Shown here: positions 1-30,147 of the stretch, piece by piece
How positions within the stretch are numbered: position 1 is the first letter of the stretch
Layout: each line of letters begins with the position of its first letter
Assembly (NCBI GenBank): GCA_965261025.1
Contig: OZ253438.1
Location: forward strand, 1,170,001 to 1,202,000
Origin: Chlamydiales bacterium
GTDB lineage: Bacteria; Chlamydiota; Chlamydiia; Chlamydiales; SM23-39
Reading direction: 5' to 3'
Length of the DNA: 32,000 nucleotides
Notes under the pieces: model-generated
The model's input: the letters and a program-made list of their open reading frames with translations, nothing else
The model's database searches: none
What the model was told of the DNA's origin: nothing
Program-made: the position numbers and the translations under genes

Positions 1-309
1 GTTCGTCCCTTTTTGAAAGTAGCTAGTGCAGTAGAGCTACCCTTTGAAGATAGGAGTTTTGATTTAGTAATTTCCATAAATACGATCCATAATTTAGAGA
101 GATTCGATTTACAAAGGGCTCTTAAAGAAATCCAAAGGGTTTCTAAGAAGGGAGCTTTTATTACGGTAGATGCTTATCGAAATGAAAAGGAAAAAGAGCT
201 GATGTATAGTTGGAATTTGACGGCAAAAACCATTTTACATGTGGAAGAGTGGAAAGAGCTTTTTGCCCAGTGCAGCTACACCGGTGACTACTATTGGTTC
301 ATGCCTTAA
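1..309 (+). CDS. Class I SAM-dependent methyltransferase (type-11-like), 3' fragment; the 5' end lies upstream of the window
   Basis: Frame 1 is open from base 1 to TAA 307-309. The translated tail (..ELPFEDRSFDLVISINTIHNL..KGAFITVDAY..) looks like the post-motif-I half of a Methyltransf_11 fold. It lies 100 nt upstream of the next gene on the same strand. Confidence 0.65.
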   Translation, partial: VRPFLKVASAVELPFEDRSFDLVISINTIHNLERFDLQRALKEIQRVSKKGAFITVDAYRNEKEKELMYSWNLTAKTILHVEEWKELFAQCSYTGDYYWFMP

Positions 310-411
310 AATCCTTCAAAAAAACGATTGCTTCACAAAAGTAGGTGTTGCTATCATCCCGGTTTTCCTGGTTAGAAGAATTTTTGTTTTTCGAATAGAT
401 ATATTGAGTGA

Positions 412-1674
412 GTGGATTATAAACCAAAAAAGTGGAACGAATCTGTGCTAAAAACAGCAAAAAAGAAGATAGAAAAAGCTCCTTTGATTGAGAAGAAGCC
501 CTGTTGTAGCGTTTGCTTGGATTCAGGTTTCTTACAAGAGCTTCTTGTTTTTCCGGAGCTTCCCTTTACAGGGATTTATGTTCCTTTAGAAGAAAGGGAG
601 GAGTCTTGTTTCTCTCAAGGGTTGGATCAGGGATTTTCTTTTTGTCCTCGTTGTTGTCATGGACAGCTGACTAATGTGGTAGATCCTTTTGTAGTTTATA
701 ATCAGTCCTATACTCATAGGGGCTCTAAAAGTGTTATTGCAACAGGAGGAAACCAGTTTTTTGCCCAATTTATAGAAAAAGTTTTTCCTCGCAGAACCTT
801 TCGGGGAGTTGTAGATATTGGCTGTAATGATGGTTTTTTGTTAAGACAGCTTGAAGAAAAGGCGGAACATCTTTTAGGGATTGATCCTATCTGGGGAAAT
901 AGAGAAGTAAAATTAACAGAAAAAATTCGTCTTTTGGGAGGGTTTGTACAAGAGGTAGATATTGTAAAATCACTGGGGAAACCTCTTGATTTAGTTATAT
1001 CTGCGCACACTTTTGAGCATGTAGAGAATCCAAAACAAGTTTTAGAGTCTATTGCAAAAAAGGTGGAAGTGGGTACGGTTTTAGTCATAGAAGTTCCCAG
1101 TTTGGATACACTTTTGAGAAACCATCGTTTTGATCAGATATTTCACCAACACATACAATATTTTTCTTGCAGATCGATCTCTACTTTGATGCAAAGTATA
1201 GGTTTTTCCTATGTTGCCCACGAATTTAATTATTCCATGTGGGGGGGGACTATGCTTTTTGCTTTTGTAAGAAAAGAGCAAAGAGAAGAAAAGCTCCCTG
1301 ATTTTCCAAAATATAGTTTAGAAGAAATCTTTTCTTCTTATGCTACCTTCCAAGATTCCTTAGAGAGGCTTTCAAAAAAGATCGCTTCTTTGGAAAAAGG
1401 AGAGATTTGCGCTTTTGGAGCGGCGCAAATGTTACCAGTTTTAGCGTATCATACTCCTTGCCATTTAGCTGGAATTTCTTCTGTCTACGATGATAATACA
1501 CAAAGGCATTTTCTACGCTATCCGGGATTTTCTTTTACTATACAAAACCCAGGAGGAGTCTCTTTTAGGGATAAGACAGTAGTAATTACTGCTTTAGATA
1601 GCGCTCGTCCTCTTATTGGTAGGTTAAATTCTTTGGGGGCTAAAAGTATACTACTACCACTACAGAACCTATAA
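412..1674 (+). CDS. Zn-ribbon C-methyltransferase of the NDP-sugar C-methyltransferase type (TylCIII-like; Methyltransf_13/14 architecture)
   Basis: N-terminal CxxC..CxxC pair (CSVC ... CPRC). SAM motif I is VVDIGCNDGFLL. The C-terminal domain contains FHQHIQYF and is paralogous to ORF 14981-16180. The start is uncertain: GTG 412, GTG 445 and TTG 484 are all in frame and none has a strong SD. The stop overlaps the next start (TAATG at 1672-1676). Confidence 0.75.
   Translation: MDYKPKKWNESVLKTAKKKIEKAPLIEKKPCCSVCLDSGFLQELLVFPELPFTGIYVPLEEREESCFSQGLDQGFSFCPRCCHGQLTNVVDPFVVYNQSYTHRGSKSVIATGGNQFFAQFIEKVFPRRTFRGVVDIGCNDGFLLRQLEEKAEHLLGIDPIWGNREVKLTEKIRLLGGFVQEVDIVKSLGKPLDLVISAHTFEHVENPKQVLESIAKKVEVGTVLVIEVPSLDTLLRNHRFDQIFHQHIQYFSCRSISTLMQSIGFSYVAHEFNYSMWGGTMLFAFVRKEQREEKLPDFPKYSLEEIFSSYATFQDSLERLSKKIASLEKGEICAFGAAQMLPVLAYHTPCHLAGISSVYDDNTQRHFLRYPGFSFTIQNPGGVSFRDKTVVITALDSARPLIGRLNSLGAKSILLPLQNL
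1241..1248 (+). repeat. Homopolymeric G8 tract inside the C-methyltransferase coding sequence (codons TGG GGG GGG = W-G-G)
   Basis: Read directly: ...ccatgt gggggggg actatg... This is the longest G/C run I found in the window; all other G/C runs are 6 nt or shorter. Confidence 0.95.
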
Positions 1675-2561
1675 TGAAAAAATTAAAAATTGCCATACTA
1701 GGAACGGGGAAGTTAGCTACAGATCTACTGGTAAAAGTGCTTCGCTCTTCCAAGCTTGAATGTGTCATCTTTGTAGGAAGAAACCGAGAGTCTCATGGAA
1801 TCTGTATTGCTAAAGATTTGCAGGTGCCAACCTCTTTTGAAGGAGTAGATTTTTTATTGAAACAGCCCCACTTATATGAACTGGTTTTCGATGTAACCAC
1901 AGCGCAGTCTCATCTTATTCACAACCAGCTTTTGCAGCCTCTTGGAAAACCTATTATAGATCTTACTCCTTGCCGTATTGGGAGTCTCCTTGTTCCCTCT
2001 ATTAATCTATCTTTAGTACATAAGACAAAGAATGTAAATTTAGTAAGTTGTGGTGGACAAACAGCTATCCCTATAATTCACGAGATTGTTTCCAAGGCAG
2101 ATTTGGTAGAATCAATCGAAATTGTTTCCACTATTGCTGCAAAAAGTGCGGGTAGAGGAACTCGTATAAATATTGATGAATATATTACCAAAACCGAAAC
2201 GGCCATTTCCTATTTTTCGGGATGTAAGAAGGTAAAAGCGATACTTATTTTAAATCCCGCCGTTCCCGAAGTGAATATGAAGACTACTCTTTATATGAAG
2301 GGCAAGCATACTGATCTTGATTCGATTCATAAAGCTATTTTATTAGCTGTTGAAAATATGCAGAAATATGTTCCAGGATATCGTTTGAAAGTACCCCCTG
2401 TGATTGACGAAGATGTTTTGACTGTAACTATAGAAGTCGTCGGTAGAGGAGACTACCTCCCTTTTTATGCGGGAAACTTAGATATTATAAATTGTGCAGC
2501 GATTCAGATTGCTGAGGAGTATGCAAATCATGTAACGGGATCGATGGCATGTCATGTATAG
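1674..2561 (+). CDS. Acetaldehyde dehydrogenase (acetylating), DmpF/MhpF family
   Basis: N-terminal Rossmann motif KIAILGTGKLATDLLVK. Catalytic-Cys signature NLVSCGGQTAIPIIHEI. Length of 295 aa is typical of the family. It overlaps the downstream aldolase gene by 13 nt, as DmpF/DmpG pairs do. Confidence 0.85.
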   Translation: MKKLKIAILGTGKLATDLLVKVLRSSKLECVIFVGRNRESHGICIAKDLQVPTSFEGVDFLLKQPHLYELVFDVTTAQSHLIHNQLLQPLGKPIIDLTPCRIGSLLVPSINLSLVHKTKNVNLVSCGGQTAIPIIHEIVSKADLVESIEIVSTIAAKSAGRGTRINIDEYITKTETAISYFSGCKKVKAILILNPAVPEVNMKTTLYMKGKHTDLDSIHKAILLAVENMQKYVPGYRLKVPPVIDEDVLTVTIEVVGRGDYLPFYAGNLDIINCAAIQIAEEYANHVTGSMACHV

Positions 2562-3568
2562 AGATTAGCGATGCTTCTTTAAGAGATGGAAATCATGCTA
2601 TATCCCATCAGCTTCACTTGGAGCATATAGCCCTTTATGCTCTAAAAGCAGATGAGTCTGGTATGTCCTACATTGAGGTAGGACATGGTAATGGTTTAGG
2701 AGCTAGTTCTTTTCAGATTGGGCATGCGCTCCACAGTGATGCAGAAGTTTTACATGCGGCTAGAAAAGCAGTGCAAAGGGGAAAGTTAAGTGTTCATGCA
2801 ATTCCTGGATTTGCCACAATTGATAAAGATATTTTACCTGCTATAGAAAAGGGAGTAGATACTTTTAGAATAGCCTCTCATTGCACGGAAGCGGATACGA
2901 CAGAGACCCAAATATCTTATTTGAAAAAGAGGGATAAGGAGGTTTTTGGAGTGCTCATGATGTCTCATAGGGCTTGTAAAAAGCAATTATTAGAGTCCGC
3001 AAGGTACATGCAAAGCTATGGAGCTTCTGGTGTGATTCTTATGGATTCAGCAGGAGCTTATATTCCGAGTGAGGTAAAAGAGAAGATTTCTTTTTTGGTA
3101 GATCATCTACAGGTTAAGGTGGGATTTCATGCGCATAATAACCTTGGTCTTGCTGTATCTAATTCTATTCTCGCTGTAGAATGTGGAGCCACTATTTTAG
3201 ACGCTACAGCAAGGGGTTTTGGAGCAGGTGCAGGAAATTGTCAGATAGAAATCCTGGTACCTCTTTTAAGCAGGCTAGGATATAGGACAAATATCGATCC
3301 CCATAAAGTTTTAGATCTGGCTGATTTTGCCGAAAAAACTTTTATACCAAGCATTCCTTCTCCTAGAACGCTTAGTATAGCAACCGGTTTGGCAGGCCTA
3401 TTTTCTGGCTTTGCTAAGCCTATAGAGAAGATGTGTGAAAAATATGAAGTAGATCCCAAGAAGGTAATTGAGACGCTAGGTTCTATGAAAGTAGTGGCAG
3501 GGCAGGAAGATGCTATTTTGCAGGCCATAAAAATGGTGATGAGTCATGATACAAGAAAATCTTCTTAA
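2549..3568 (+). CDS. 4-hydroxy-2-oxovalerate aldolase-like (DmpG/MhpE family, HMGL-like TIM barrel)
   Basis: ISDASLRDGNHAISHQ (substrate/metal Asp region) and VGFHAHNNLGLAVSNS (His-x-His metal ligands). 339 aa. Directly paired with the DmpF-like gene. Confidence 0.85.
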   Translation: MSCIEISDASLRDGNHAISHQLHLEHIALYALKADESGMSYIEVGHGNGLGASSFQIGHALHSDAEVLHAARKAVQRGKLSVHAIPGFATIDKDILPAIEKGVDTFRIASHCTEADTTETQISYLKKRDKEVFGVLMMSHRACKKQLLESARYMQSYGASGVILMDSAGAYIPSEVKEKISFLVDHLQVKVGFHAHNNLGLAVSNSILAVECGATILDATARGFGAGAGNCQIEILVPLLSRLGYRTNIDPHKVLDLADFAEKTFIPSIPSPRTLSIATGLAGLFSGFAKPIEKMCEKYEVDPKKVIETLGSMKVVAGQEDAILQAIKMVMSHDTRKSS

Positions 3569-4334
3569 GAAAGCCCTTACTTCAAATCGAGTTGTTTTTG
3601 GGACTTGGTCTGTCTTACACTCTGTTTCTTCTATAGAGGCCTTGGGGGCAACTCCTTTAGATTTTATCCTTTTTGATAGGGAACATGATTCTATTTCTTA
3701 CGAGAAAATTGCTCAGTATACAAGTTTTTGTTTTGCTAGCAGACTTACTCCACTGGTTAGAATTCCTGAAATTTCTCTTAGTGAGGTACAACGCGCGCTT
3801 GATTCGGGAGCGCAAGGGTTGCATGTTCCAAATATTTCAAGGCCTGAGCAAATAGAGAAGCTCTTGGAACTAGCGTTATTTCCTCCTTTGGGTAAAAGAG
3901 GGTTTGCTCCTTTTACTAAGGCTTGTGGGTATCAAAAAGAAAAGGTGTCTTATGTTTTACAAAACACCAATAACCAGCTTTTGCTAGCGGTTCATATAGA
4001 AAACAAAGAAGGAATAGAAAATCTTTCCAAGCTTCTTTCTTATGAATTTATTGATATATTTTTTGTGGGGCTTTTTGATTTAGCAAACTCTTTGGGTCTT
4101 CAGGGGGATATTAGGCATCCGCATTGGGAAGAAATCTTGAAGTCCCTTATAAAACAGATTCAGTCGAAAAATAAAATAGCAGGAACCATTGCTATGAATT
4201 TAGAGCAGGCGGAGTATTTGCTGGGATTGGGATTTCAGTATTTAACGATCTCTTCTGACTGTGATATGCTCTTTAGTTCTTATACAAACTTTTTACAAAA
4301 TGTGGGAAGGGTTTCTTATGGAGTTAAATCTTAA
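3546..4334 (+). CDS. HpcH/HpaI-family (class II, pyruvate-dependent) aldolase
   Basis: VVFGTWSVLHS..IEALGATPLDFILFDREHD and ..VRIP......RALDSGAQGLHVP resemble the HpcH/HpaI aldolase / citrate-lyase beta fold. The ATG at 3546 overlaps the upstream gene by 23 nt. Confidence 0.75.
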   Translation: MIQENLLKKALTSNRVVFGTWSVLHSVSSIEALGATPLDFILFDREHDSISYEKIAQYTSFCFASRLTPLVRIPEISLSEVQRALDSGAQGLHVPNISRPEQIEKLLELALFPPLGKRGFAPFTKACGYQKEKVSYVLQNTNNQLLLAVHIENKEGIENLSKLLSYEFIDIFFVGLFDLANSLGLQGDIRHPHWEEILKSLIKQIQSKNKIAGTIAMNLEQAEYLLGLGFQYLTISSDCDMLFSSYTNFLQNVGRVSYGVKS

Positions 4335-5109
4335 GGGAAAAAAAGCATTGGTTACAGGGGGCTCTAACGGAATTGGCAAGGCCATTGTCAAGGCTTTGGC
4401 TTCGGAAGGGGTCACGGTAGCTTTTACTTCTAGAAAGCAGTACCGAATTGATTCACTTTTATCAGAGATGGAGGAAGAGGGACTTTCTCATTTAGGGGTA
4501 CAGGTGGATATCTCAGAAGAAGCAGGTCCTAGTAGAGTAAAGGCTGTTTTAGAAGAAAAGTTTGGAGAAGTGGACATTCTCGTAAATAATGTAGGAGATA
4601 CTTTATCAATAGTGGATCCTTACTGTTCCTTATCTGATTGGAAAAGGATATACCGGCTAAATCTCGAAGTGCACGTAGAGTTAGTTAATTTATTTCTTCC
4701 TCATATGCTCAAGCAAAGGTGGGGTCGAATTGTAAATATCACGGCAGGCGCTGCTTTAGAAAACAGTGGTCCCGTTCCTTATTGTTCTATGAAGGCGGCG
4801 TATACGGCTTATACAAGATCTATGGCGCGAGTTTTGGCACCAGAAAATGTCGTTATGACAGCGGTGCTTCCTGGTGTTGTGCTTACAGAAGAAGGGCATT
4901 GGCAAAAAGTATTGGAAGACAGACCGAATCATGCAAAAAAGTATTTATCGGAGAGGACTTCTTTGAAAAGATTTGGGCTTCCTGAAGAGATTAGTCCCAT
5001 GGTGGTTTTTCTTTGTTCTGATGCGGCTTCCTTTTGTCAAGGGTCTATTGTTCCTGTAGAAGGAGGACAGGCCCGTCATTATTTTCATGTGCATGGAATA
5101 GGAAATTAA
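4318..5109 (+). CDS. Short-chain dehydrogenase/reductase (classical SDR)
   Basis: The protein starts MELNLKGKKALVTGGSNGIGKAI (TGxxxGIG). It carries NNVG and the YxxxK catalytic motif (YCSMKAAY). I prefer ATG 4318, preceded by GGGAAGGG, over the track's upstream alternative start at 4261. The TAA stop is immediately followed by the next ATG (5107-5112). Confidence 0.85.
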   Translation: MELNLKGKKALVTGGSNGIGKAIVKALASEGVTVAFTSRKQYRIDSLLSEMEEEGLSHLGVQVDISEEAGPSRVKAVLEEKFGEVDILVNNVGDTLSIVDPYCSLSDWKRIYRLNLEVHVELVNLFLPHMLKQRWGRIVNITAGAALENSGPVPYCSMKAAYTAYTRSMARVLAPENVVMTAVLPGVVLTEEGHWQKVLEDRPNHAKKYLSERTSLKRFGLPEEISPMVVFLCSDAASFCQGSIVPVEGGQARHYFHVHGIGN

Positions 5110-6870
5110 ATGAAGGCAACAGACTATATTGCCTCTGTTTTACGAAAAAAGGGTATTTCAGCAGTTTTTGGAGTAACTGGGGGTGCAGTCGTACATCTTT
5201 TTGATTCTGCAAAGAAGGAGGGATTAGAATGCGTGTTTACCCATCACGAACAGTCGGGAGCTTTTGCAGCAGGGGCTTTTGCTAGGCTCCAGGGATTAGG
5301 AGCTTTATTTTGTACTACAGGACCTGGAGGGACAAACGCTCTTACAGGGATAGCGGCGGCTTGGCTTGACTCCGTTCCCTTAATCTGCTTAGGGGGACAG
5401 GTAAGATTGTCTCACATGAAACCAAAAAATATTCGGCAGCAAGGAGCACAAGAGCTGGATATAGTCTCTTTGATGAAGCCCATTACAAAATCAGCACAAA
5501 CGGTAAAGAGTTTAGCTCTTTTACCTAAGATGTTAGAAGAGTCTATTGAAATAGCTACCTCAAAAAGACCGGGACCCGTTTATCTAGAAATACCCCTGGA
5601 TTTACAGTGGCAATCCATTACTTTACCAGAGGCTTCTTTACAGAAAGACTTTCCGGAAGTAGCTTTAGAAGAAGAAAAAATGAAGCAAATTTTTCAGCGG
5701 TTTAACCAGGCTAAAAAACCTCTTGTTTTGATAGGGCATGGTGTAAGACTAGCTAAGGCTAAATATCTTATAAGAGCTTTTTTGGATAAGAGCGAAGTTC
5801 CTCATATCACTACGTGGAATGCGGTAGATCTGGTAGAGGGAACGTCCCCTTTGTATCTGGGTTGTCCTGGGATGTTTGGCACTAGAGAAGCCAATTTAGC
5901 GGTACAGACTTGCGACTTTCTTCTTTGTATAGGGACGCATTTACCTATTCCTATTACAACAGGTTTATTTCATAAGTTTGCTACTTCTGCTGAGATTGCT
6001 ATGATCAATATTGATGACAAGGAGCTTTCCTCGCAAAGGGTAGAGATAAAGCATAAACTACTCATGGATGCTAGGGTTTTTTTAGAAAAGGCTCTTCCTG
6101 TTATTCAGCCTGTAAAAAATTGGTCTTGGAAAAGCTCCTGCTGTAGGATTCGGCAGCTTTTTTCTTCGAGCTTTTTACCGAAAAAGGAAAAAGGTTTTAT
6201 GGATGCTTATCAAGCGGTAAGAATCATCAACAGCTTTTTGGATAAAGATACTATTGTGGTTATAGATGGGGGAGGCACTATTGTACAGATTGGAATGCAA
6301 ACGCTTATTGCTAAAGAGAATCAACGAATTATAATTGATGCGGGACTTTGTTCTATGGGATCAGGGCTTCCTCATGTTATTGGCTCTTGTAAAGCAAGGC
6401 CTGATGCAAAGGTATTTTGTCTTGTGGGAGAAGGCAGTCTTATGTTTAATTTACAAGAACTTCAGACTCTCTCTGATCACAAGATGAATGTAGTAGTGTT
6501 CGTTTTCAATAATGAAGGATATCTTTCTATAAAACATACCCAGGAGAGTTTTTTAAAAGGAGTTTACTTAGGCTCTAGCAAAGAGGGAGGGATTTCTACG
6601 CCAGATCTCAAAAAGTTGGCTTCTTCTTTTTGCATTCGATATTCGCTGGCTGCGGAGGAAGAGACGTTTTCTGAGCAGCTCTCCATTATAAAAAAAGAAA
6701 AAGGCCCTCACTTATGTGAAGTTCGAATTTCTAAAGAGCAGTCTATTTCTCCAAAAATCGGATTTTCAAAAAATCAAGACGGGACAGCCTCTCAAAATCC
6801 CATAGATAAGATGGAGCCCTTCATCTTTGAAAAAGAAACAAGAGAATTCTTAGTAAATATAAAGACCTGA
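5110..6870 (+). CDS. Thiamine-diphosphate-dependent enzyme, acetolactate-synthase large-subunit / YerE-like carboligase
   Basis: HHEQSGAFAAGAFARL carries the catalytic Glu. TTGPGGTNALTGIAAAWLDSVPLICLGGQ is also present. The ThDP motif reads GEGSLMFN..(24 aa)..NNEGY, i.e. GEG instead of the canonical GDG. 586 aa. Confidence 0.85.
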   Translation: MKATDYIASVLRKKGISAVFGVTGGAVVHLFDSAKKEGLECVFTHHEQSGAFAAGAFARLQGLGALFCTTGPGGTNALTGIAAAWLDSVPLICLGGQVRLSHMKPKNIRQQGAQELDIVSLMKPITKSAQTVKSLALLPKMLEESIEIATSKRPGPVYLEIPLDLQWQSITLPEASLQKDFPEVALEEEKMKQIFQRFNQAKKPLVLIGHGVRLAKAKYLIRAFLDKSEVPHITTWNAVDLVEGTSPLYLGCPGMFGTREANLAVQTCDFLLCIGTHLPIPITTGLFHKFATSAEIAMINIDDKELSSQRVEIKHKLLMDARVFLEKALPVIQPVKNWSWKSSCCRIRQLFSSSFLPKKEKGFMDAYQAVRIINSFLDKDTIVVIDGGGTIVQIGMQTLIAKENQRIIIDAGLCSMGSGLPHVIGSCKARPDAKVFCLVGEGSLMFNLQELQTLSDHKMNVVVFVFNNEGYLSIKHTQESFLKGVYLGSSKEGGISTPDLKKLASSFCIRYSLAAEEETFSEQLSIIKKEKGPHLCEVRISKEQSISPKIGFSKNQDGTASQNPIDKMEPFIFEKETREFLVNIKT

Positions 6871-7729
6871 AGAATCTCCTTCCCCGGGAGATTATTCCTC
6901 CTAGAATGAGGAAGATAAGGGTTTTGGGGGATTTTTTTTGCCAAAATAGGGTATAAATAAATTCTTTTCTCAGCTCTTTCAAAATAGAGTAAGAGAGCAT
7001 CTTTTTTCTCACGTCAAGATAAGCGGGAGTTTGTAGGGATTCTAATATATAAAGACAGGGTTTTTTTCGGTCATTTTTAGGATGAGAAAGATTTTCATCG
7101 TGCAAACGCTTATGAGCCAACACCGCTTTTATAAAAACAAAACCATGTCTCAAGGCAATCACATGGGAAAAAAACCAATCGCAAAGAGGTCCTGTATTTT
7201 TTTGAACTCCTCCTGCTTGGAGAACATAACTTCTTTTGTAGATGCTAGTATGTCCTAAAAATGTGTGATTTTCTTGCTTAAATTTTGCCACTTCCTCTCT
7301 AGGGTAGAATTGGGAGGGGAAAGACGTTTGTTCATTGCATTTTTCTCCTTCTTTTTTTTTGTGAAAATAAAAAGGTTCAGAACAAGCAAACCCCGCTTCG
7401 GGGTGTGCTTTTAAAGAGGAGAGAGTAATTTCAATAAAATTTGGTAAAATGAAGTCATCGGAACAGGCAAAATAAATGTATTCTCCTTTTGCCCTATGTA
7501 GCCCCCTATTAGCGCTTTCATAAGCTCCTCGTCTCTTCTCGTTTTTGATAAAAATAATCTGAGGAAAGTTTCTTACGTAACTTTCTATAATATCGCGGCT
7601 ATTATCCGTAGAGGCATCATCGATAAGGATAAGTTCGTCAGGAAATTTTGTTTGTTGAGCAAATCCTTCCAAAGCAGATTCAATATAACGTCCAAAATTG
7701 TAATTGCACATAACTACAGAAAGACGCAT
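6821..7729 (-). CDS. Family 2 glycosyltransferase (GT-A fold)
   Basis: MRLSVVMCNYNFGRYIESAL..LILIDDASTDNS.. and a DxD-like CSDDF motif. ATG 7729 is preferred over the track's 7777 because GT2 proteins normally begin right at the 'SV(V/I)..YN' strand. The 3' end overlaps the convergent ThDP gene by 50 nt. Confidence 0.8.
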   Translation of the reverse strand: MRLSVVMCNYNFGRYIESALEGFAQQTKFPDELILIDDASTDNSRDIIESYVRNFPQIIFIKNEKRRGAYESANRGLHRAKGEYIYFACSDDFILPNFIEITLSSLKAHPEAGFACSEPFYFHKKKEGEKCNEQTSFPSQFYPREEVAKFKQENHTFLGHTSIYKRSYVLQAGGVQKNTGPLCDWFFSHVIALRHGFVFIKAVLAHKRLHDENLSHPKNDRKKPCLYILESLQTPAYLDVRKKMLSYSILKELRKEFIYTLFWQKKSPKTLIFLILGGIISRGRRFFRSLYLLRILLFLFQR

Positions 7730-7921
7730 TGAGGTTCCAAAAGGTTTTTTTGTATACAAGATACCTTGCGTAGGCATTTTTAAAAAATAAGAACAAAAAG
7801 AAAGTCTTCTAACTTTAGTTGTACAGAAAAGAAGATCTTCGTGTTAGACTCCGAGGTAGTTTTTACATACAAGTTAAGCTGCAGCTAAATATAGCCCAGA
7901 GGATAGTTTAGGTATTTTGAT
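7730..7921. promoter_or_regulatory. Divergent intergenic region that must hold promoters for the GT2 (minus) and Zn-ADH (plus) genes
   Basis: Back-to-back start codons. The only candidate element I see is a weak TTTACA (7862-7867) - N18 - TAAATA (7886-7891). I could make no confident -35/-10 assignment by eye. Confidence 0.3.
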
Positions 7922-8986
7922 ATGAAAGAGGGTAAAACATTCGCAGCTATCTTGGAAAAGCAAAAGTCTCCCCTTCTTTTAAAAGAGCTTAAACTTCCCG
8001 AATTAAAACCAGGCCAGGTTTTAGTCAAGATGCACTATAGCGGTCTTTGTAGAACCCAGATAAATGAGATTATAGGATTAAAGGGAGAGGATCATTACCT
8101 ACCGCACACTTTAGGTCATGAAGGGTCTGGGGTTGTAGTTAGTATAGGAGAGGAAGTTACTAAGGTACTCCCTGGAGATCACGTAGTGATTTCCTGGATA
8201 AAAAGTAAAGGTAGAGAAGCTTCTTCTACGCAGTATGAAGGAGAGGGGCAAAAAGTGAACTCAGGAGCAGTGAGTACCTTTTTAACCTATGCGGTTATTG
8301 CAGAAAATCGGTTGGTTTCTATCCCTAAAGATATTTGTCTAAAAGAAGCCGCTCTTTTAGGTTGCGCTTTTTGTACAGGAGCAGGTGTGATCTTAAACCA
8401 AATGAAGCTAAAAAAGGGAGAATCTTTGGCGATATGTGGATTAGGAGGTATTGGCATGAGCGCGCTTATAGCAGCTTCTATGCAGAAGGCTTTTCCTATT
8501 GTTGCAGTAGATATTTCCCGAGAAAAACTGCACAAGGCAAAAGAGCTTGGAGCTACTCATACCATCGATGCTAAAGAAGAAGGAGTTCTGGATAAAATTC
8601 GACAGATTACAGAAAAAAAGGGAGTAAATTTTTCTTTAGAATCAGCAGGTAGCTTATCTGCTATGGAACTCTCTTTTGCTTGCTTGTCTCCTGATAGGGA
8701 AGATTTTAGAAAAGGTGCTTGCTACATTGTAGGGAATGTAAAAAAACAAAGCACCATTCGGATAGATCCCTTTGATTTAATTTTGGGAAAAAAAATTTAT
8801 GGCTCCTGGGGTGGAGAAACTAACTTAGATGAAGATATTCCTAGATATTGTAAGCTCATTCAAGAAGGAAAACTTTCTTTAAAATCGCTCATCTCACACG
8901 AAGTTTCTTTAAAAAATATCAATTCTCTCATAGATCTTGCAAAGAAAAATGAGCTTCAAAGAGGTCTTGTGACTTTTTTGCAATAG
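7922..8986 (+). CDS. Zinc-dependent medium-chain alcohol dehydrogenase (MDR family)
   Basis: Catalytic Zn ligand contexts are GLCRTQ, GHEGSGVV and LLGCAFCTGAG. The NAD motif is GLGGIGMSA. The four-Cys structural-zinc loop that normally follows GDxV is absent (ISWIKSKGREASSTQYEG has no Cys). Confidence 0.8.
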   Translation: MKEGKTFAAILEKQKSPLLLKELKLPELKPGQVLVKMHYSGLCRTQINEIIGLKGEDHYLPHTLGHEGSGVVVSIGEEVTKVLPGDHVVISWIKSKGREASSTQYEGEGQKVNSGAVSTFLTYAVIAENRLVSIPKDICLKEAALLGCAFCTGAGVILNQMKLKKGESLAICGLGGIGMSALIAASMQKAFPIVAVDISREKLHKAKELGATHTIDAKEEGVLDKIRQITEKKGVNFSLESAGSLSAMELSFACLSPDREDFRKGACYIVGNVKKQSTIRIDPFDLILGKKIYGSWGGETNLDEDIPRYCKLIQEGKLSLKSLISHEVSLKNINSLIDLAKKNELQRGLVTFLQ

Positions 8987-9075
8987 AGATCTTCTTCCTC
9001 TCTTTGAAATTAAGATATCTTTTATGTTTTGCTTTTTTTAAGATACGTTTCTTATTCTTAGATTGGGAGGAGAAA

Positions 9076-9438
9076 ATGGGGAATGCTTTACAGGTTGTAG
9101 CAGAGGCAGGAAGTTTTTCAGTGGCTACTTATCTGGTAGGATCTGTTTCTCTTCCGATTGCTACAGCTGCCGGTTGCGTTTTTGCTTTGGTTTCTCGGAT
9201 TACCGAACCTTTTTTTAAACAGCGCGGGAGTCGGGAAAATAATTTTAGTGTATTTTTTTGTAATACAATGATGGCTGCCGCTTTAGTAAATTTTTTATTT
9301 GGCTCTAACCTTACTAAGGTAGTATCTTTCAACATCCTGATTTGCACAGCATTGGTCTTATTGATAATAAGGATAGCTTCGTTAGCCAAAGAATATCTTG
9401 AAGCGGGATGGGGCTTATTATCCGCTATATTGTCTTAG
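9076..9438 (+). CDS. Small hydrophobic membrane protein, unknown function (about 120 aa, 3-4 predicted TM segments)
   Basis: ATG 9076 is preceded by GGGAGGAG at 9065-9072. The track's start at 9004 is a TTG with no SD. Hydrophobic stretches include SVATYLVGSVSLPIATAAGCVFALV, FFCNTMMAAALVNFLFG and FNILICTALVLLIIRIASL. I recognise no family. Confidence 0.5.
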   Translation: MGNALQVVAEAGSFSVATYLVGSVSLPIATAAGCVFALVSRITEPFFKQRGSRENNFSVFFCNTMMAAALVNFLFGSNLTKVVSFNILICTALVLLIIRIASLAKEYLEAGWGLLSAILS

Positions 9439-9484
9439 CCATAAGTTTAGTAATTTCTAGCTATATTTGGGAAAATAGCGCTTT

Positions 9485-9679
9485 TTAAGAAACCCTAGAA
9501 GGGCTGTATTTTTCTTGTAGTAGTAGATAACTTTTTTCGATTTCCTGGCAAGAAGACAGGAGCGTCTCATGCTCTTTTAAAAGAGCAGAAAGGCTCTTAG
9601 AGGTTTTTTTTTCTTGTAGGTTTTGCAGCGATTTTTTTAGTTCATTTATTTGTTTCATAGCTTCGTTATAAGGGGTCAT
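9485..9679 (-). CDS. Small (64 aa) predicted coiled-coil protein, unknown function
   Basis: Its ATG overlaps the TGA of the upstream MFS gene (ATGA at 9676-9679). The sequence is heptad-like and rich in K/E/L/Q (NELKKSLQNLQEKK..LLKEHETLL). Coding status is supported only by this coupling. Confidence 0.4.
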   Translation of the reverse strand: MTPYNEAMKQINELKKSLQNLQEKKTSKSLSALLKEHETLLSSCQEIEKSYLLLQEKYSPSRVS

Positions 9680-10896
9680 ACTTTTTTTTGTATATACAAA
9701 ATGGCAGCAAAAAGACTGGTCAAAGAGGCAAGTAGAAATGGAATATTTACATGAATATGTGTCGTGATCGCAACCAAAGGAGAAAGTCCCATAGCTAAAG
9801 ACTGCATGGATTGGCTCATTCCTAAAATTTTTCCTTGAGTTTGTTTTCCTGCCTTTTCAGAGATTTTATTAGTACAAATAGGCCAAGAAACGCCTGCTAA
9901 GACTACACCAATTCCTAAAAGAATAACGAGGTAGGTTACCTTAGAGATAAACAGAAGGGAAAAAGTAATTATGGTGATAGCTAGAAAGGAAGTTTCCAAA
10001 AGTTTTAAAGGAGAGAAAAAGCGGAGAAGTTTTTTTACCAAAAATCCTGCTCCTACGGCCCAACAAACTCCCATAAAAGAGGAAATATCTCCTATTTCAG
10101 AGTTGGTAAATTGAAATTCTCTTACAGCTAAAACAGGGGTGAATTGCAAGAGGATATTCCAGGAAAACAGAAAGAGAAAGAAAATCAGATAAATTCTTTT
10201 TAGCTTTTCAATGGTAAGAGCTTGTTGGATATTTTGAAAACTTTCTAAAAGGTGAAATTTCTGTTTTGTATTATGAGGATGTGTTTCTTCAAAACCAAAG
10301 AGGAGAAAAAAGAGATTAAAAAGGCAACAAAAAGCAGCGATCCAAAAGGGAAGCACTTCACTAAAGTAGGGATTTAAAGTAGAATCAGAAAATTTTCCTC
10401 CTAAAAAAGTACCAAGAATAAAGGAGAGTCCCGCTAGCATAGCTAGGTAACCAAATCCTTTTGTTCTCTTGGATCCTTCTTCTGATAAATCCGCAATAGA
10501 AGCTAAACAAATAGAGAGATTCCCAGAAAAAATACCACTCAAGAGCCTTCCTATAAGAAGAAGCCATAAAAGCTTTTCTTTTATACCAAAAGCGCTAAGA
10601 ACAAGACCTAAAAAAGTAAAGCCAACTGTTAAAATAAAGGCCTTTTTTCTACCCACTTTATCCGCATATTCTCCGATTAAAGGAGCTCCGAAAAATTGTC
10701 CTATAGGAAAAATAGCTAGAAAAATTCCTAAAAGAGTAGTGCGAGTGGCTAAAGAAACACTTTCAGAAAATAAAAGGTTTTTAGGATCAAGAAAAAAAGG
10801 AGCAAAGATGGGAAAAACAATAGACCAACTAAGATTGTCTACAAAAAAGGTAAGATAAACTGAAGGTAAGGTTAGTTTTTTCCTTTTAGTATGCAT
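9676..10896 (-). CDS. Major facilitator superfamily transporter (DHA1 / drug:H+ antiporter-like)
   Basis: About 12 hydrophobic segments. MFS motif A is GEYADKVGRKKAF, located between TM2 and TM3. 406 aa. Confidence 0.85.
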   Translation of the reverse strand: MHTKRKKLTLPSVYLTFFVDNLSWSIVFPIFAPFFLDPKNLLFSESVSLATRTTLLGIFLAIFPIGQFFGAPLIGEYADKVGRKKAFILTVGFTFLGLVLSAFGIKEKLLWLLLIGRLLSGIFSGNLSICLASIADLSEEGSKRTKGFGYLAMLAGLSFILGTFLGGKFSDSTLNPYFSEVLPFWIAAFCCLFNLFFLLFGFEETHPHNTKQKFHLLESFQNIQQALTIEKLKRIYLIFFLFLFSWNILLQFTPVLAVREFQFTNSEIGDISSFMGVCWAVGAGFLVKKLLRFFSPLKLLETSFLAITIITFSLLFISKVTYLVILLGIGVVLAGVSWPICTNKISEKAGKQTQGKILGMSQSMQSLAMGLSPLVAITTHIHVNIPFLLASLTSLFAAILYIQKKV

Positions 10897-10959
10897 GGTT
10901 TTCTTTGTCTTTTTGCTTCTTTACCCTTTAGCAAAAAGAAAAAATAAAAAGAAGAGGTT

Positions 10960-11481
10960 TTATAGTTCCTTATTTTTTTTATGCCTTCTGATGTGCAAAA
11001 TGAGGAGAATTAAAATGGCCAAAAGAAGAACCGGAATAGAAAAAACGTAGAAGAACTTTATAGCAATGGCAACAATGAGAGCAAAAACTCCTAAGGTAAA
11101 ACCTACTAAAAGAAAGGACCACTCGACATAGATTCCAATAGTGAATACCGTCAATGCTAACAAAGTTAAAGCAATAAGGCCAGCCAAAGACCTACTAAGA
11201 AGCCCTGTTTGTACATACATTTCTAATAGAAACACCGCTGCTAAAAGTCCCACCCAATGTAGCAGCTCATGCCAAAGGGTAATGGGGGTTATGGTTTCTT
11301 TTTTTCTTTTTTCATACCAAGAAAGCCAAAGGGCCAGAAGGGCATTTACTGGAATAATCCATTTCCAGTAGCTCCATCCTCCCACTGCCTTAATATCTGT
11401 TAAGACAACCCCTATAAAAGCTAAGATAAGCATGAAAATAGCTGTAGTAAGTCTTGCTCCCCAAGGATGTTTTGGTTTCAT
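10960..11481 (-). CDS. Multi-pass membrane protein, unknown function
   Basis: ATG 11481 (MKPKHPWGARL..) is preferred over the track's TTG at 11538. There are five or more hydrophobic segments and a basic C-terminal tail (HIRRHKKNKEL). It lies downstream of ung on the same strand. Confidence 0.55.
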   Translation of the reverse strand: MKPKHPWGARLTTAIFMLILAFIGVVLTDIKAVGGWSYWKWIIPVNALLALWLSWYEKRKKETITPITLWHELLHWVGLLAAVFLLEMYVQTGLLSRSLAGLIALTLLALTVFTIGIYVEWSFLLVGFTLGVFALIVAIAIKFFYVFSIPVLLLAILILLILHIRRHKKNKEL

Positions 11482-11541
11482 GGTATATAGTAAACCCTTT
11501 TTTTTGATTGTCTTTTTCAAAAGGTAAAAAAGCAACAAAAT

Positions 11542-12231
11542 CTAGCTTGAAAGAGCCCAACGGATTGGTTTAATTCCTTTTTTTTCCAGATAACAATTTG
11601 TTTTTGAAAAAGGTTTAGAGCCAAAAAAGCCAAAAGAAGCAGAATAAGGAGAAGGGTGGGCCGAGGAAAGAACGAGGTGATCTTTAGGAATTTTTGCTAA
11701 GATCCTTTCGCACTTTTCTTGAGCTGATTTTCCCCAAAGGAGGAAAACCAAAGAATCTTTCTTTTCTGCTAAAAGCTGAATGACTCGATCAGTAAAAATT
11801 TCCCATCCTTTTCCATAGTGAGATCTAGGTTCTTTTTCTCTCACCGTTAAAGTAGCGTTGAGAAGAAGCACTCCTTCTTTGGCCCAACCCAGTAAAGAGC
11901 CTTGCTTTGGAGGAGGAATGTGTAGATCCTCTTCTAATTCTTTGAAAATGTTTTTTAAAGAAGGGGGAAAAGGAGTGCCTTCTTGTACGCTAAAAGAAAG
12001 GCCGTGAGCTTGGTCTTTTCCATGGTAAGGATCTTGTCCTAAAAGAACCACTTTTACCGCATCAAAAGGGGTTTGACAAAAGGCGTTAAAAAGGAGAGAA
12101 GAAGGGGGATAAAGGAGTTTTCCTTCTTTTATTTCTTTTCGCAAGAAATCTTGAAGATCTTTCATGTAAGGCATTTTCCACTCTTTCTCCAAAAGGTGGG
12201 CCCATTTTTGTTCCATATAAAAAGGAGTCAT
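11542..12231 (-). CDS. ung: Uracil-DNA glycosylase, family 1
   Basis: VVLLGQDPYHGKDQAHGLSFSV (water-activating Asp loop), GVLLLNATLTV and the C-terminal HPSPYSA His motif. Its ATG overlaps the TGA of the upstream epimerase gene (ATGA at 12228-12231). Confidence 0.92.
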   Translation of the reverse strand: MTPFYMEQKWAHLLEKEWKMPYMKDLQDFLRKEIKEGKLLYPPSSLLFNAFCQTPFDAVKVVLLGQDPYHGKDQAHGLSFSVQEGTPFPPSLKNIFKELEEDLHIPPPKQGSLLGWAKEGVLLLNATLTVREKEPRSHYGKGWEIFTDRVIQLLAEKKDSLVFLLWGKSAQEKCERILAKIPKDHLVLSSAHPSPYSASFGFFGSKPFSKTNCYLEKKGIKPIRWALSS

Positions 12232-13163
12232 ATATTTTTAAATTCACTTCTTTTCAAAAGAGGATAAGCAAATACCATCTCTTGAATTCCCTCTTCTAAA
12301 GTTTTTGTAGGAGCCCAACCGAGAGATTCTAGCTTTTCATTGCTTACGATATAGTTTCTTTGATCTGGATCTTTCCCTATAGGAGCAGAGTGAATATATA
12401 GGTCAGGAACATATCTTTGTATCGTTTCTGCTAGTTCTTTTTTACTGAGATTTGCAGAACTTAACCCTACATTAAAAGCCTCAGCTCTCATTCTATCAAA
12501 GTTTTGTATAGCAAATAGAAAAGCTCTAGCTACGTCTTTTACGTGGATGTAGTTTCTTTTGAAATGCTCTTCGAAAAGAACTAGAACCTTGTCATGACAG
12601 GCGCGAAAAGTAAAGTCATTGACCAAAAGATCGAGACGCATTCTGGGAGATATCCCAAACACAGTAGCGAGTCTTAAAGAAACGGCTTGCTTTGTTTGTA
12701 GTAACTTTTTTTCTATATCTACTTTGAGTTTTCCATATAAAGAAACGGGGTTTAACGGAGTTTTTTCGGTGCAGAAAAGATTGTTTTGCCCTAGCCCATA
12801 CCCGCTATTGCTATTTGGAAACACTATTTTTTTCTCTTTTGTCATATAGCGCAAAATCAGCTCAATAGCGTCGTAATTTACAAGCTTTGCCAAAGAAGGA
12901 GAGGCTTGGCAAATAGGGGCTCCTACTAAAGCCGCTAGAGGAAGAATGATATCTGCTTCTTCAACTAGATGAGCAAGAAGAGGTTCATTTTGTACTTCCC
13001 CTTTTATAAAACGAAAATGAGGACTGGCAAAGCAACAAAGAAGGGAGGTGGGTGTATACAAAAGAGAATCCAAAACAGTAACGAAAAACCCTTCTTCTAA
13101 AAGAAGAGGAACCATTACGGAGCCTATGTATCCTGCTCCCCCTGTTACTAAGATATGTTGCAT
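12228..13163 (-). CDS. NAD-dependent nucleotide-sugar epimerase/dehydratase/reductase (extended SDR)
   Basis: ILVTGGAGYIGS Rossmann motif and YGKLK (YxxxK). 311 aa. It overlaps the upstream nucleotidyltransferase gene by 16 nt. Confidence 0.85.
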   Translation of the reverse strand: MQHILVTGGAGYIGSVMVPLLLEEGFFVTVLDSLLYTPTSLLCCFASPHFRFIKGEVQNEPLLAHLVEEADIILPLAALVGAPICQASPSLAKLVNYDAIELILRYMTKEKKIVFPNSNSGYGLGQNNLFCTEKTPLNPVSLYGKLKVDIEKKLLQTKQAVSLRLATVFGISPRMRLDLLVNDFTFRACHDKVLVLFEEHFKRNYIHVKDVARAFLFAIQNFDRMRAEAFNVGLSSANLSKKELAETIQRYVPDLYIHSAPIGKDPDQRNYIVSNEKLESLGWAPTKTLEEGIQEMVFAYPLLKRSEFKNI

Positions 13164-13867
13164 AAGTTAGAAAGTGCGGTTTGTGCTTGTTGAAAGGATT
13201 TTTCTGTTCCTATATCGACAAAAGTCTTATCGCAAGGATACATAAAGAAACGCTTTTGTAAACAAAGGGGAAATACCTCTTTTTCCAAAGAAAAAGAAGG
13301 AGATTCAAAAGGCAAATCGGAAAAAAGGCTCTTTCGAAAAAGATAGGTACCACAGCTAATCCATCCTTTTTCTGAAAAAGGGATCTTCTCTTCAAAAGAA
13401 AGAATTTGGGAAGTAGTAGGATCTATGCTTACAGTTCCATATCTACTAGTGTCTTCCATTTGTTTTCCTAAAAGGGAAATGTCTGCTTTTTTTTCTAAAA
13501 AGCTTTGGTAGAATCCCTTTAGAGAATAGTCTGTAAAACAGTCCCCATTAGTAGCAAGTACATGAGGGGTTTTTACTAAATTCAAAGCTCTTTTTAAAGC
13601 ACCGCCCGTTCCCAAAGGGGTCTCTTCTATAGAAAAATAGAGGGGAAATGAGGTTTCTTTAAAGTGTTCCAAGATTTTCCCTGCTTTATATCCCACAGCC
13701 AGGATAATCCTACCTACCGAAGAAAAGGAGGCGAGCTGGTTTATCAAAAGATCCAAAAAAGGAATTCCTCGAATGGGAGCAAGGGGTTTAGGGACGGAAG
13801 AAACAACTTTTTGCAGACGAGTTCCGAATCCCCCTGCCAAAATAATAGCGTCTGTTTTATTTGTCAT
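13148..13867 (-). CDS. Sugar-1-phosphate nucleotidyltransferase (HddC / mannose-1-P guanylyltransferase-like)
   Basis: AIILAGGFGTRLQ..PKPLAPI signature (GxGTRL). 239 aa. ATGA overlap with the kinase gene at 13864-13867. Confidence 0.85.
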   Translation of the reverse strand: MTNKTDAIILAGGFGTRLQKVVSSVPKPLAPIRGIPFLDLLINQLASFSSVGRIILAVGYKAGKILEHFKETSFPLYFSIEETPLGTGGALKRALNLVKTPHVLATNGDCFTDYSLKGFYQSFLEKKADISLLGKQMEDTSRYGTVSIDPTTSQILSFEEKIPFSEKGWISCGTYLFRKSLFSDLPFESPSFSLEKEVFPLCLQKRFFMYPCDKTFVDIGTEKSFQQAQTALSNLCNIS

Positions 13868-17124: not shown

Positions 17125-17148
17125 TAAGGTTTTATTTTAGGTTTATCT

Positions 17149-20200: not shown

Positions 20201-20371
20201 AAGTCCTCTCCATATAAGAGTGTTAAAACAGGGGAAGGGTAGGTTATGAACCTTTTTTTGTAAAGAGCAGCCCTCTTTCAAAAAATCCTTTATTCTTTGG
20301 GAAAAATAATTTCCCCTATTTAGTATAAGTGTCCATATTGAATATATTCTGGAAGGCTAAATGGATTTTTT
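20201..20371. promoter_or_regulatory. Divergent intergenic region (methyltransferase/LhgO-like operon on minus, GT4-GT4-FkbM operon on plus)
   Basis: Back-to-back starts in AT-rich sequence. It contains a perfect short inverted repeat, GGGAAA-aataa-TTTCCC, at 20299-20315. Promoter elements were not confidently assignable. Confidence 0.3.
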
Positions 20372-30011: not shown

Positions 30012-30147
30012 ACTCTTTTCGAAATCAAACAAGAGGTTATTTTTAAGTGTTGTAGGACCTTTTGGCAAGAACTCTTTGTGATTTTTATGCTAATTTTTTT
30101 TTATCCTGCAAGAAAAAAGAGGCAATTTTTAAAAAAAGGTTTTTCCT
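30012..30147. promoter_or_regulatory. Divergent intergenic region between topA (minus) and the HExxH membrane-protein gene (plus)
   Basis: Back-to-back starts in very AT-rich sequence with a T9 run at 30094-30102. Promoters are inferred from gene arrangement only. Confidence 0.3.

Follow-up and report, generated by a model that had tools for sequence, protein, structure and literature searches.

What is made by an operon that places two pyruvate aldolases, an acylating aldehyde dehydrogenase and a thiamine diphosphate (ThDP)-dependent enzyme behind two methyltransferase genes? The operon opens a stretch of 32,000 nt from a Chlamydiales bacterium (the window; assembly GCA_965261025.1, contig OZ253438.1, positions 1,170,001–1,202,000, forward strand) and encodes, in order, a Methyltransf_11-type methyltransferase, a Zn-ribbon methyltransferase, a DmpF-like dehydrogenase, a DmpG-like aldolase, an HpcH/HpaI-family aldolase, a short-chain dehydrogenase/reductase (SDR) and a YerE-like ThDP enzyme (genes 1 to 7; Table 1). 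A previous sequence-only reading had offered two roles for it, the building of a branched or chain-extended sugar and the making of a C4/C5 hydroxy acid or diol substituent for a glycan; its family assignments hold for all seven genes by Pfam, NCBIfam and Protein Data Bank (PDB) matches. We put a probability of roughly 0.7 on the operon being the side-chain part of an acyl-branched (C-branched, higher-carbon) nucleotide-sugar pathway for a chlamydial surface glycan. Gene identities, family placement and conserved synteny were observed here, and the pathway logic is that of the erwiniose and caryophyllose literature.

The previous reading knew of no characterised pathway with this composition, but the core logic is published for erwiniose and caryophyllose (Steitz et al., Angew Chem 2022, PMC9306805). 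In the scheme proposed and partly tested for acyl-branched sugars, which covers erwiniose, caryophyllose and gastriose, a pyruvate aldolase makes a 4-hydroxy-2-oxo acid and a ThDP enzyme decarboxylates this acid and adds it to a keto sugar; a ketoreductase and sometimes an S-adenosylmethionine (SAM)-dependent methyltransferase complete the set (PMC9306805). The three C–C bond enzymes of the operon had been taken as independent; since in this published chain of donor supply and ligation the aldolases feed the ThDP enzyme, they act in series there. In the erwiniose cluster of Pectobacterium atrosepticum, ErwE (ThDP) and ErwF (reductase) are encoded beside ErwI (aldolase) and ErwJ (acetaldehyde dehydrogenase), the latter two resembling BphI and BphJ; ErwE accepted 4-hydroxy-2-oxopentanoate, rejected pyruvate, and ligated 4-hydroxy-2-oxopentanoate to a pyranone analogue of its proposed acceptor, CDP-3,6-dideoxy-4-keto-glucose (CDP, cytidine diphosphate; PMC9306805). 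For caryophyllose, Mycobacterium marinum has an aldolase of the HpcH/citrate-lyase family (MMAR_2331) with the ThDP enzyme MMAR_2332, and a Rhodopseudomonas palustris CGA009 cluster adds a SAM methyltransferase (PMC9306805).

The window shares with the erwiniose cluster a YerE-like ThDP enzyme beside a DmpG-like aldolase, a DmpF-like dehydrogenase and a reductase in a glycan locus, where the aldolase product would be the ThDP donor. It differs in adding an HpcH aldolase and two methyltransferases, in having no CDP-3,6-dideoxyhexose genes, and in its reductase, which is a classical and not an extended SDR and is likened to ErwF and YerF by description only. The caryophyllose, gastriose (M. gastri MygI/MyGE) and R. 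palustris systems resemble the window, again by description, in that the ThDP enzyme receives a longer hydroxylated 2-oxo acid from an HpcH/citrate-lyase-family aldolase, and R. palustris has the SAM methyltransferase in common as well; unlike the window, they have no reported DmpFG pair, and their acceptor is a 3,6-dideoxy-4-keto sugar. The role in making a branched or chain-extended sugar is supported by this scheme together with conserved synteny and the placement of the ThDP enzyme.

That enzyme (gene 7) has HEQ at residues 46–48, and its best solved relatives are 8rph (E = 1.7e-100, 340 bits), which is JanthE, described as a YerE-like enzyme, and 5ahk (E = 4.4e-74, 253 bits). Escherichia coli acetohydroxyacid synthase I (E = 3.5e-69, 237 bits) and the plant acetolactate synthases rank behind both. 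We take 5ahk to be the PpYerE entry; PpYerE and JanthE are the YerE-like enzymes for which a review gives solved structures. In a neighbour-joining tree of 75 ThDP proteins from DmpG-bearing loci, together with IlvB, IlvI and PoxB of E. coli, the window enzyme falls in a clade with the enzymes of L001, L009, L050 and L084 (such labels denote comparison loci outside the window), and this clade nests in the DmpG-locus group, apart from IlvB and IlvI. The clade is small, since only five proteins in a library of 1.84 billion representatives are at least 40% identical to the window enzyme; identity is ~32% (about 31–33%) to the other subclades and the common DmpFG-linked type, and 27–29% to IlvI and IlvB. 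Judged by sequence, the enzyme is closer to the YerE-like enzymes than to the acetolactate synthases. YerE of yersiniose A (YerE/YerF), JanthE and PpYerE share with it a superfamily and a proposed reaction in which a 2-oxo acid is decarboxylated and added to a ketone, although YerE uses pyruvate and needs no aldolase. The ThDP enzyme of a Janthinobacterium locus (L077) was considered as a stand-in for JanthE and dropped; at 361 bits to 8rph it is no closer than the window protein.

This placement bears on the explanation that the ThDP enzyme and the SDR form an acetolactate, acetoin, 2,3-butanediol or branched-chain amino-acid module. The best NCBIfam names for the ThDP enzyme are indeed acetolactate synthases, and a meso-2,3-butanediol dehydrogenase model matches the SDR (E = 8e-42), but these scores, those of all acetolactate synthase equivalog models included, lie far under their curated cutoffs (for example, 338 versus 738 bits). 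The window holds no gene for a small regulatory subunit or an acetolactate decarboxylase and no ilv genes, and the protein separates from IlvB and IlvI in the tree while lying closer to the YerE-like enzymes. We consider such a module very improbable.

A donor for the ThDP enzyme could come from the products of genes 3 and 4. The DmpF-like enzyme has Cys126 within a VSCGGQ motif, and its gene is invariably paired with a DmpG-like gene across the related loci. The DmpG-like aldolase consists of an HMGL-like domain and a communication domain (DmpG_comm, PF07836), matches PDB entry 1nvm with E = 2.3e-61, and has the catalytic and metal residues R12, D13, H16, H194 and H196, which are invariant in its subfamily. 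The Tyr and Leu that determine 4S selectivity in BphI (Y290 and L87) are both absent: the position of DmpG Tyr291 (BphI Tyr290) is Phe285 in the window aldolase and Phe in all 26 aligned subfamily members, and that of DmpG Leu88 (BphI Leu87) is His83, with His in 23 of the 26. In BphI, Y290F abolishes or relaxes 4S selectivity, and Y290F combined with L87N or L87W flips the preference to 4R. The acid used as donor by ErwE is 4R (Steitz et al., 2022, PMC9306805). Given the BphI mutants and this use of a 4R acid, the Tyr-to-Phe and Leu-to-His changes would fit a biosynthetic DmpG-like enzyme yielding a 4R donor, and the two substitutions suggest a product of 4R or relaxed stereochemistry. The His83/Phe285 pair (window 2795–2797 and 3401–3403) may serve as a marker that separates glycan-associated, biosynthetic DmpG-like aldolases from catabolic ones; the comparison covered the 26-member alignment, DmpG and BphI.

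The second aldolase (gene 5) scores below cutoff against the HpaI, GarL and RhmA equivalog models. Its best PDB match is YfaU (E = 1.8e-26), and the positions aligned with His47, Arg73, Glu153 and Asp179 are retained. It belongs to a rare subfamily, with only seven relatives at E ≤ 1e-10 in a word-indexed search. Its closest non-orthologous relative (39% identity) is encoded at 10001–10780 of L005/L006, a marine metagenome glycan locus with three CMP-sugar-type cytidylyltransferases, a NeuB-like synthase, a protein like glyceraldehyde-3-phosphate dehydrogenase and a 2-hydroxyacid dehydrogenase, and with no ThDP enzyme; this is another, unexplained use of such an aldolase in sugar biosynthesis.

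A protein search with the DmpG-like enzyme finds thousands of relatives at 52–60% identity. A genome scan with an alignment of relatives from its subfamily gave at least 80 loci; with the window and seven further loci, 88 were compared, and all counts here are among the matches listed. The loci lie in Bacteroidota, Paenibacillus, cyanobacteria, proteobacteria, spirochaetes, bacteria of the Planctomycetes–Verrucomicrobia–Chlamydiae (PVC) group and several archaea, the closest to the window protein among those listed coming from an uncultured Chlamydiales bin. A ThDP enzyme is encoded at most ~10 kb from the DmpF–DmpG pair in 82 of the 88, and most of these loci also hold nucleoside diphosphate (NDP)-sugar genes and glycosyltransferases.

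The sequence-only reading had allowed for a match to a characterised catabolic operon unrelated to glycans. One such candidate is a meta-cleavage or hydroxyphenylacetate-type operon in which DmpFG and HpaI cleave 4-hydroxy-2-oxo acids and which lies beside glycan genes by chance. The window enzymes do share folds, catalytic residues and a complex-forming communication domain with catabolic DmpFG/BphIJ and HpaI/YfaU, and both the DmpF-like and the DmpG-like protein exceed NCBIfam equivalog cutoffs derived from catabolic enzymes. However, the hydratase, dioxygenase, hydrolase and regulator of such pathways are all missing from the set, the DmpG subfamily stands beside ThDP and sugar genes in the 82 loci, in bacteria and archaea alike, and the stereocontrol Tyr is Phe in every member examined. 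By comparison with the catabolic enzymes, the context is biosynthetic, the stereocontrol residues are changed and the proposed direction is synthesis and not cleavage; on context and residues we reject the catabolic match, which we hold to be hardly credible.

Three types of locus were distinguished among the 88. The plain type (65 loci, for example Planktothrix L002 and Paenibacillus L003) has a ThDP enzyme in 59 and DdhA/B/C-like genes in about 46. In the HpcH-linked type (16 loci) the HpcH gene is next to the ThDP gene, and DdhA/B/C-like genes are present in 12; L084, a short Omnitrophota contig truncated upstream of DmpF, is placed in this type despite having a ThDP enzyme of the window clade. 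One such locus, L077 of Janthinobacterium sp. BJB426, reads Wzz, transferase, dehydratase, DegT-type protein, HpcH, ThDP, reductase, DmpF, DmpG, reductase. Loci of this kind resemble the window in combining DmpF, DmpG, HpcH and ThDP genes in one glycan locus, but have DdhA/B/C-like genes and two extended-SDR reductases, and no TcaB9-like methyltransferase, classical SDR or E1 alpha/beta genes; their HpcH proteins are 28–37% and their ThDP enzymes ~32% identical to those of the window.

The window type comprises seven loci (the window, L001, L009, L050, L093, L094 and L095), with the order C-methyltransferase-like, DmpF, DmpG, HpcH, SDR, ThDP. L001 has the same core order at 61–84% identity and the same neighbours on both sides; L009 is a Chlamydiales bin, and L050 is a Planctomycetia bin in which a YfhO-like gene and a GT2 gene are inserted. 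The order is kept in L094 and L095, while the SDR and ThDP genes are inverted in L093. In all, the six-gene core occurs in at least 17 other loci, namely the other six of the window type and 11 metagenome loci with a different order; its carriers are Chlamydiales, Planctomycetia and unassigned metagenome contigs, at 36–84% protein identity.

Within the window, the seven head-to-tail open reading frames (ORFs) are separated by +102, -1, -13, -23, -17 and 0 nt, computed from the coordinates; the first value had been given as +100 and the other five as here. Since the same overlaps and order recur in L001 and the gene set in many other loci, the arrangement is not due to chance, and a fortuitous co-occurrence, which the earlier reading had named as a refuting outcome, is not borne out. 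Of the gene starts, that of gene 2 (GTG, 412) carries the most uncertainty, as family members are ~18 residues shorter at the N-terminus, and the SDR gene is taken to start at ATG 4318 (MELNLKG), its longest ORF beginning at GTG 4261. The GT2 gene reported next to the operon is there; it faces the ThDP gene, with which it shares 50 nt, and is convergent in L001 too, and GT2 genes lie in or beside the module in L050, L093, L094 and L095. Promoter-like sites in the window were at or below shuffle expectation, terminator-like matches were scattered within genes, and Rfam gave no match anywhere in the window, the 102-nt gap after gene 1 included.

The conserved unit is larger than seven genes. The downstream GT2 and Zn-dependent alcohol dehydrogenase (Zn-ADH) genes belong to it, Zn-ADH homologues with 31–77% identity being found in L001, L050 and L095 and in the majority of the longer metagenome loci; in orthologous loci it also includes upstream E1 alpha/beta, 4,6-dehydratase-like, GmhA-like and HldE-like genes. 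Around the window-type core stand genes for a GmhA-like isomerase and an HldE-like protein, several genes of the epimerase/dehydratase family, one of them closest to a 4,6-dehydratase, the E1 alpha/beta pair, a Methyltransf_11 gene, Zn-ADH and HddA/HddC-like genes, all below equivalog cutoffs. The HldE-like bifunctional protein has its domains reversed, the N-terminal one being the nucleotidyltransferase and the C-terminal one the PfkB kinase, and scores below the HldE cutoffs (L001 2600–4129; L050 2192–3268; L093 6533–8059; L133 13954–15465).

E1 alpha/beta-type enzymes are assigned by a review to the acetyl branching of antibiotic sugars. Such a pair is encoded in L001, L050, L095 and many metagenome loci beside the same methyltransferases, SDR and dehydratase-like gene; whereas AviB1/B2, Pau11/12 and KbDH serve antibiotic sugars and use pyruvate only, the pair in the window-type relatives lies in a surface-glycan locus with a YerE-like enzyme. 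That the cluster makes a diffusible secondary metabolite or glycosylated natural product instead of a surface glycan is an explanation to which these enzymes, known mainly from antibiotic pathways, and the major facilitator superfamily (MFS) exporter at 9676–10896 would lend themselves. We regard it as improbable: no polyketide synthase, nonribosomal peptide synthetase or aglycone genes are found in the window or in the related loci, the surroundings are of lipopolysaccharide (LPS) and glycan type (GT2, GT4, GT9, an ATP-binding cassette exporter, YfhO-like and KdoO-like proteins), and the host is a small-genome chlamydia.

Scanning metagenomes with the gene 2 family gave 80 loci, in which its constant partners are E1 alpha/beta, Methyltransf_11, the classical SDR (often immediately downstream), Zn-ADH, dehydratase-like and HldE-like genes. 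DmpF, DmpG, HpcH and ThDP genes are all present in 11 of the 80, in a different gene order; DmpFG, SDR and ThDP genes occur with no HpcH gene in L112, L114 and L170, HpcH, SDR and ThDP genes with no DmpFG pair in L097, L098 and L135, and the SDR and ThDP genes alone in three loci, while many have neither an aldolase nor a ThDP enzyme. As each aldolase system is found alone with the ThDP enzyme, the two would fit alternative roles as donor suppliers. We offer the reading that the locus is a base module centred on E1 alpha/beta and extended by a YerE-like enzyme and by one or both of the aldolase systems. Integrase/transposase (rve) genes lie in or beside the module in L009 (5746–6462) and L133 (11692–12465), a hint of horizontal movement of the cassette that would fit its patchy spread among phyla.

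The SDR (gene 6) carries TGGSNGIG and YCSMK motifs and is better conserved than any other protein of the operon (59–84% identity across loci). Its gene adjoins the ThDP gene wherever the latter is present, and directly follows the C-methyltransferase-like gene in loci with no ThDP enzyme. In the other locus types, the reductases encoded beside the ThDP enzyme are of a different family, the extended SDRs ('Epimerase'-type). The cluster has two ketoreductase candidates, the SDR immediately upstream of the ThDP gene and the Zn-ADH downstream of it.

These reductases are also relevant to the second role proposed earlier, in which the product of the genes is a small molecule (a hydroxy acid, hydroxyaldehyde or diol, for example 3-hydroxybutanal, 1,3-butanediol or 2,4-dihydroxypentanoate) that is O- or N-linked to the glycan with no C–C branch. 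Formation and reduction of such molecules would in principle be within reach of the aldolases, a decarboxylase activity of the ThDP enzyme, the SDR and the Zn-ADH, and the SDR is of the classical small-molecule type and not of the extended NDP-sugar type. This role nevertheless has less support than a branched sugar because the conserved set has no coenzyme A (CoA) ligase or acyltransferase, nor an aminotransferase; moreover, the ThDP enzyme groups with YerE-like carboligases, of which the characterised ones attack ketones, and the co-conserved 4,6-dehydratase-like gene would supply a keto-sugar acceptor. We consider a linked substituent unlikely.

The gene 1 fragment matches the C-terminal 102 aa of its L001 orthologue (219 aa) at 81% identity, and a homologue directly follows the ThDP gene in L050 and L084. 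In L133 (7398–9965) a YerE-like ThDP enzyme carries, fused to its C-terminus, a domain of Methyltransf_11 type that is 50% identical to gene 1 over 100 aa, which ties gene 1 to gene 7. Three further ThDP relatives (P0251, P0260 and P0274) are of a length comparable to the L133 fusion (~850 aa). Gene 2 encodes a four-Cys ribbon (C32, C35, C78 and C81, all conserved in the family) and a class I methyltransferase domain. Its family profile aligns with the 3-C-methyltransferases 4rv9 and TcaB9 over profile positions 10–383 of 399, that is, across three domains (E = 6.7e-37); most homologues match PF08421 and some PF08484, while the window copy is under the Pfam thresholds for both. Like TcaB9, 4rv9 (D-mycarose) and the TylC3 type, gene 2 has the Zn-ribbon, the SAM domain and a C-terminal domain, but it differs in its FHQH motif: F244-H245-Q246-H247 is invariant in the subfamily, where the TcaB9 equivalent is Y222-D-E224-H225. 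Only the His of Tyr222/Glu224/His225 is kept, and the position aligned with His181 is also retained. With FHQH in place of Y-x-E-H, C-methylation remains a plausible activity of gene 2, though not a certain one. At 14981–18189 (+) a second C-methyl-sugar cassette, of canonical type, encodes a C-methyltransferase, an epimerase/reductase and a GDP-mannose 4,6-dehydratase; its C-methyltransferase (14981–16180) has the full PF08421, PF13489 and PF08484 complement and the Y-x-E-H motif. This cassette probably makes a separate 6-deoxy-3-C-methyl hexose.

Put together with the published scheme, these assignments outline a pathway for which we infer every substrate, the acceptor, and the roles of the HpcH aldolase, the SDR and both methyltransferases. 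The DmpF-like enzyme would convert acetyl-CoA to acetaldehyde, which the DmpG-like aldolase would join with pyruvate to give 4-hydroxy-2-oxopentanoate. The HpcH aldolase would add pyruvate to another aldehyde and so make a second or longer 4-hydroxy-2-oxo acid, which could be 4,6-dihydroxy-2-oxoheptanoate if 3-hydroxybutanal is available, or 4,5-dihydroxy-2-oxohexanoate from lactaldehyde. The YerE-like enzyme would decarboxylate the keto acid and attach the hydroxyacyl unit at the keto carbon of an NDP-4-keto sugar, so that a tertiary alcohol results; the branch ketone would be reduced by the SDR, possibly together with the Zn-ADH, the TcaB9-like and Methyltransf_11 enzymes would place methyl groups on the sugar or the branch, and GT2 would pass the sugar on. 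The acceptor would probably be a 6-deoxy-4-keto-heptose or -hexose and not CDP-3,6-dideoxy-4-ketoglucose.

Several observations weigh against this pathway. DdhA/B/C-like genes, the makers of the known acceptor, are found within 10 kb in none of the seven window-type loci. The window begins within gene 1, and the heptose-type, dehydratase-like and E1 alpha/beta genes are seen in the orthologous loci only. Why two aldolases would be needed is unexplained. The window ThDP enzyme is set beside ErwE, YerE and MMAR_2332 by description and not by sequence, and the neighbour-joining tree that places it carries no support values. Its Mg/ThDP motif reads GEG...NN at residues 440–442 (window 6427–6435), whereas the L001, L009, L050 and L084 orthologues and all other relatives inspected have GDG where the motif could be located; the Glu may be a tolerated Asp-to-Glu change, the mark of a weakened enzyme or a sequencing variant. 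Finally, E1 alpha/beta is a more constant partner of the gene 2-type methyltransferase and the SDR than the ThDP enzyme and aldolases are; the methyltransferase and the SDR may instead act on an acetyl branch made by E1 alpha/beta.

The acyl-branched sugar pathway nevertheless appears here as a conserved modular variant of a published type. It is set apart by the presence of both aldolase types, a classical SDR, heptose-type activation genes that replace the CDP-3,6-dideoxyhexose genes, and E1 alpha/beta enzymes in the relatives; this combination of genes is probably previously undescribed, and its product probably novel. Literature searches returned no relevant work on such aldolases in O-antigen clusters, on chlamydial heptose glycans or on a C-branched sugar structure for the host. 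Acyl-branched sugars are rare, chemically hard to detect and known from few bacteria, yet the DmpFG–ThDP cassette is widespread among the matches listed (Bacteroidota, Paenibacillus, cyanobacteria, methanogenic archaea and chlamydiae), and a distinct modular variant occurs in chlamydiae, planctomycetes and related metagenome bins. Chlamydial LPS is usually regarded as minimal; the locus predicts a complex surface sugar in Chlamydiota. It also offers new predicted carboligases and aldolases with which to prepare chiral tertiary alcohols.

A bolder and rather doubtful extension is that environmental chlamydiae and other PVC bacteria make an undescribed heptose-derived sugar with methyl groups and two thiamine-installed branches, an acetyl or hydroxyethyl branch from the E1 alpha/beta enzymes and a C4–C6 hydroxyacyl branch from the YerE-like enzyme with the two aldolases in series. 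If so, one surface glycan would join two branching systems that are kept apart in the literature, one ascribed to LPS and the other to antibiotics.

Table 1. Genes of the operon and of the neighbouring sugar-related functions, in window coordinates
Feature	Position	Strand	Supporting match
Methyltransf_11-type SAM methyltransferase, 3' part (cut by window start; gene 1)	1–309	+	PF08241, E 4.8e-11
Zn-ribbon three-domain methyltransferase, sugar C-methyltransferase superfamily, divergent FHQH subfamily (gene 2)	412–1674	+	TcaB9, E 7e-19
Acylating acetaldehyde dehydrogenase, DmpF/BphJ/ErwJ-like (gene 3)	1674–2561	+	TIGR03215, 342 bits vs cutoff 282; PF09290, E 1.5e-45
Class II pyruvate aldolase, DmpG/BphI/ErwI-like, glycan-associated subfamily (gene 4)	2549–3568	+	TIGR03217, 324 bits vs cutoff 286
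HpcH/HpaI-family class II pyruvate aldolase, rare subfamily (gene 5)	3546–4334	+	PF03328, E 3.4e-19
Classical SDR, probable branch ketoreductase (gene 6)	4318–5109	+	PF00106, E 3.4e-42
YerE-like ThDP-dependent carboligase, acetolactate-synthase superfamily, not acetolactate synthase (gene 7)	5110–6870	+	three TPP domains
GT2 glycosyltransferase	6821–7777	-	PF00535, E 1e-27
Zn-dependent medium-chain alcohol dehydrogenase (Zn-ADH)	7922–8986	+	PF08240 and PF00107
Epimerase/reductase	12228–13163	-	Pfam match
HddC-like nucleotidyltransferase	13148–13867	-	NCBIfam HddC, 151 bits, below cutoff
HddA-like GHMP kinase	13864–14868	-	NCBIfam HddA, 135 bits, below cutoff

Further into the window the glycan locus has two GT4 genes (20372–22587) and more sugar-nucleotide genes in addition to the GT2 gene. 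The HddA/HddC/epimerase trio (12228–14868) also adjoins the core in L001 and L094, as do the kinase and transferase in L093, and these are probably sugar-activation genes for the same glycan, with a weaker link to the operon. Between Zn-ADH and the trio, 9004–11538 holds genes for a small membrane protein, a Tet-like MFS transporter (the exporter mentioned above), a 192-aa multi-pass membrane protein and a uracil-DNA glycosylase; the transporter and the glycosylase hold the same positions in L001. The glycan locus is thus interrupted by unrelated genes. In mid-locus, at 18186–20281 (-), a gene passing the L-2-hydroxyglutarate oxidase equivalog (467 bits versus a cutoff of 299) is translationally coupled to one for a Methyltransf_24 protein. 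G+C content across the window is 0.33–0.42 and gives no clear island signal. A KdoO-like hydroxylase of 3-deoxy-D-manno-octulosonic acid (Kdo) is encoded at 31005–31961 (+), next to the topoisomerase gene named below, and scores below cutoff (204 versus 300 bits). At 27525–30068 (-) lies a gene for an 847-aa topoisomerase I/SWI-domain fusion (NF004966, 1308 bits versus a cutoff of 868), a fusion characteristic of chlamydiae.

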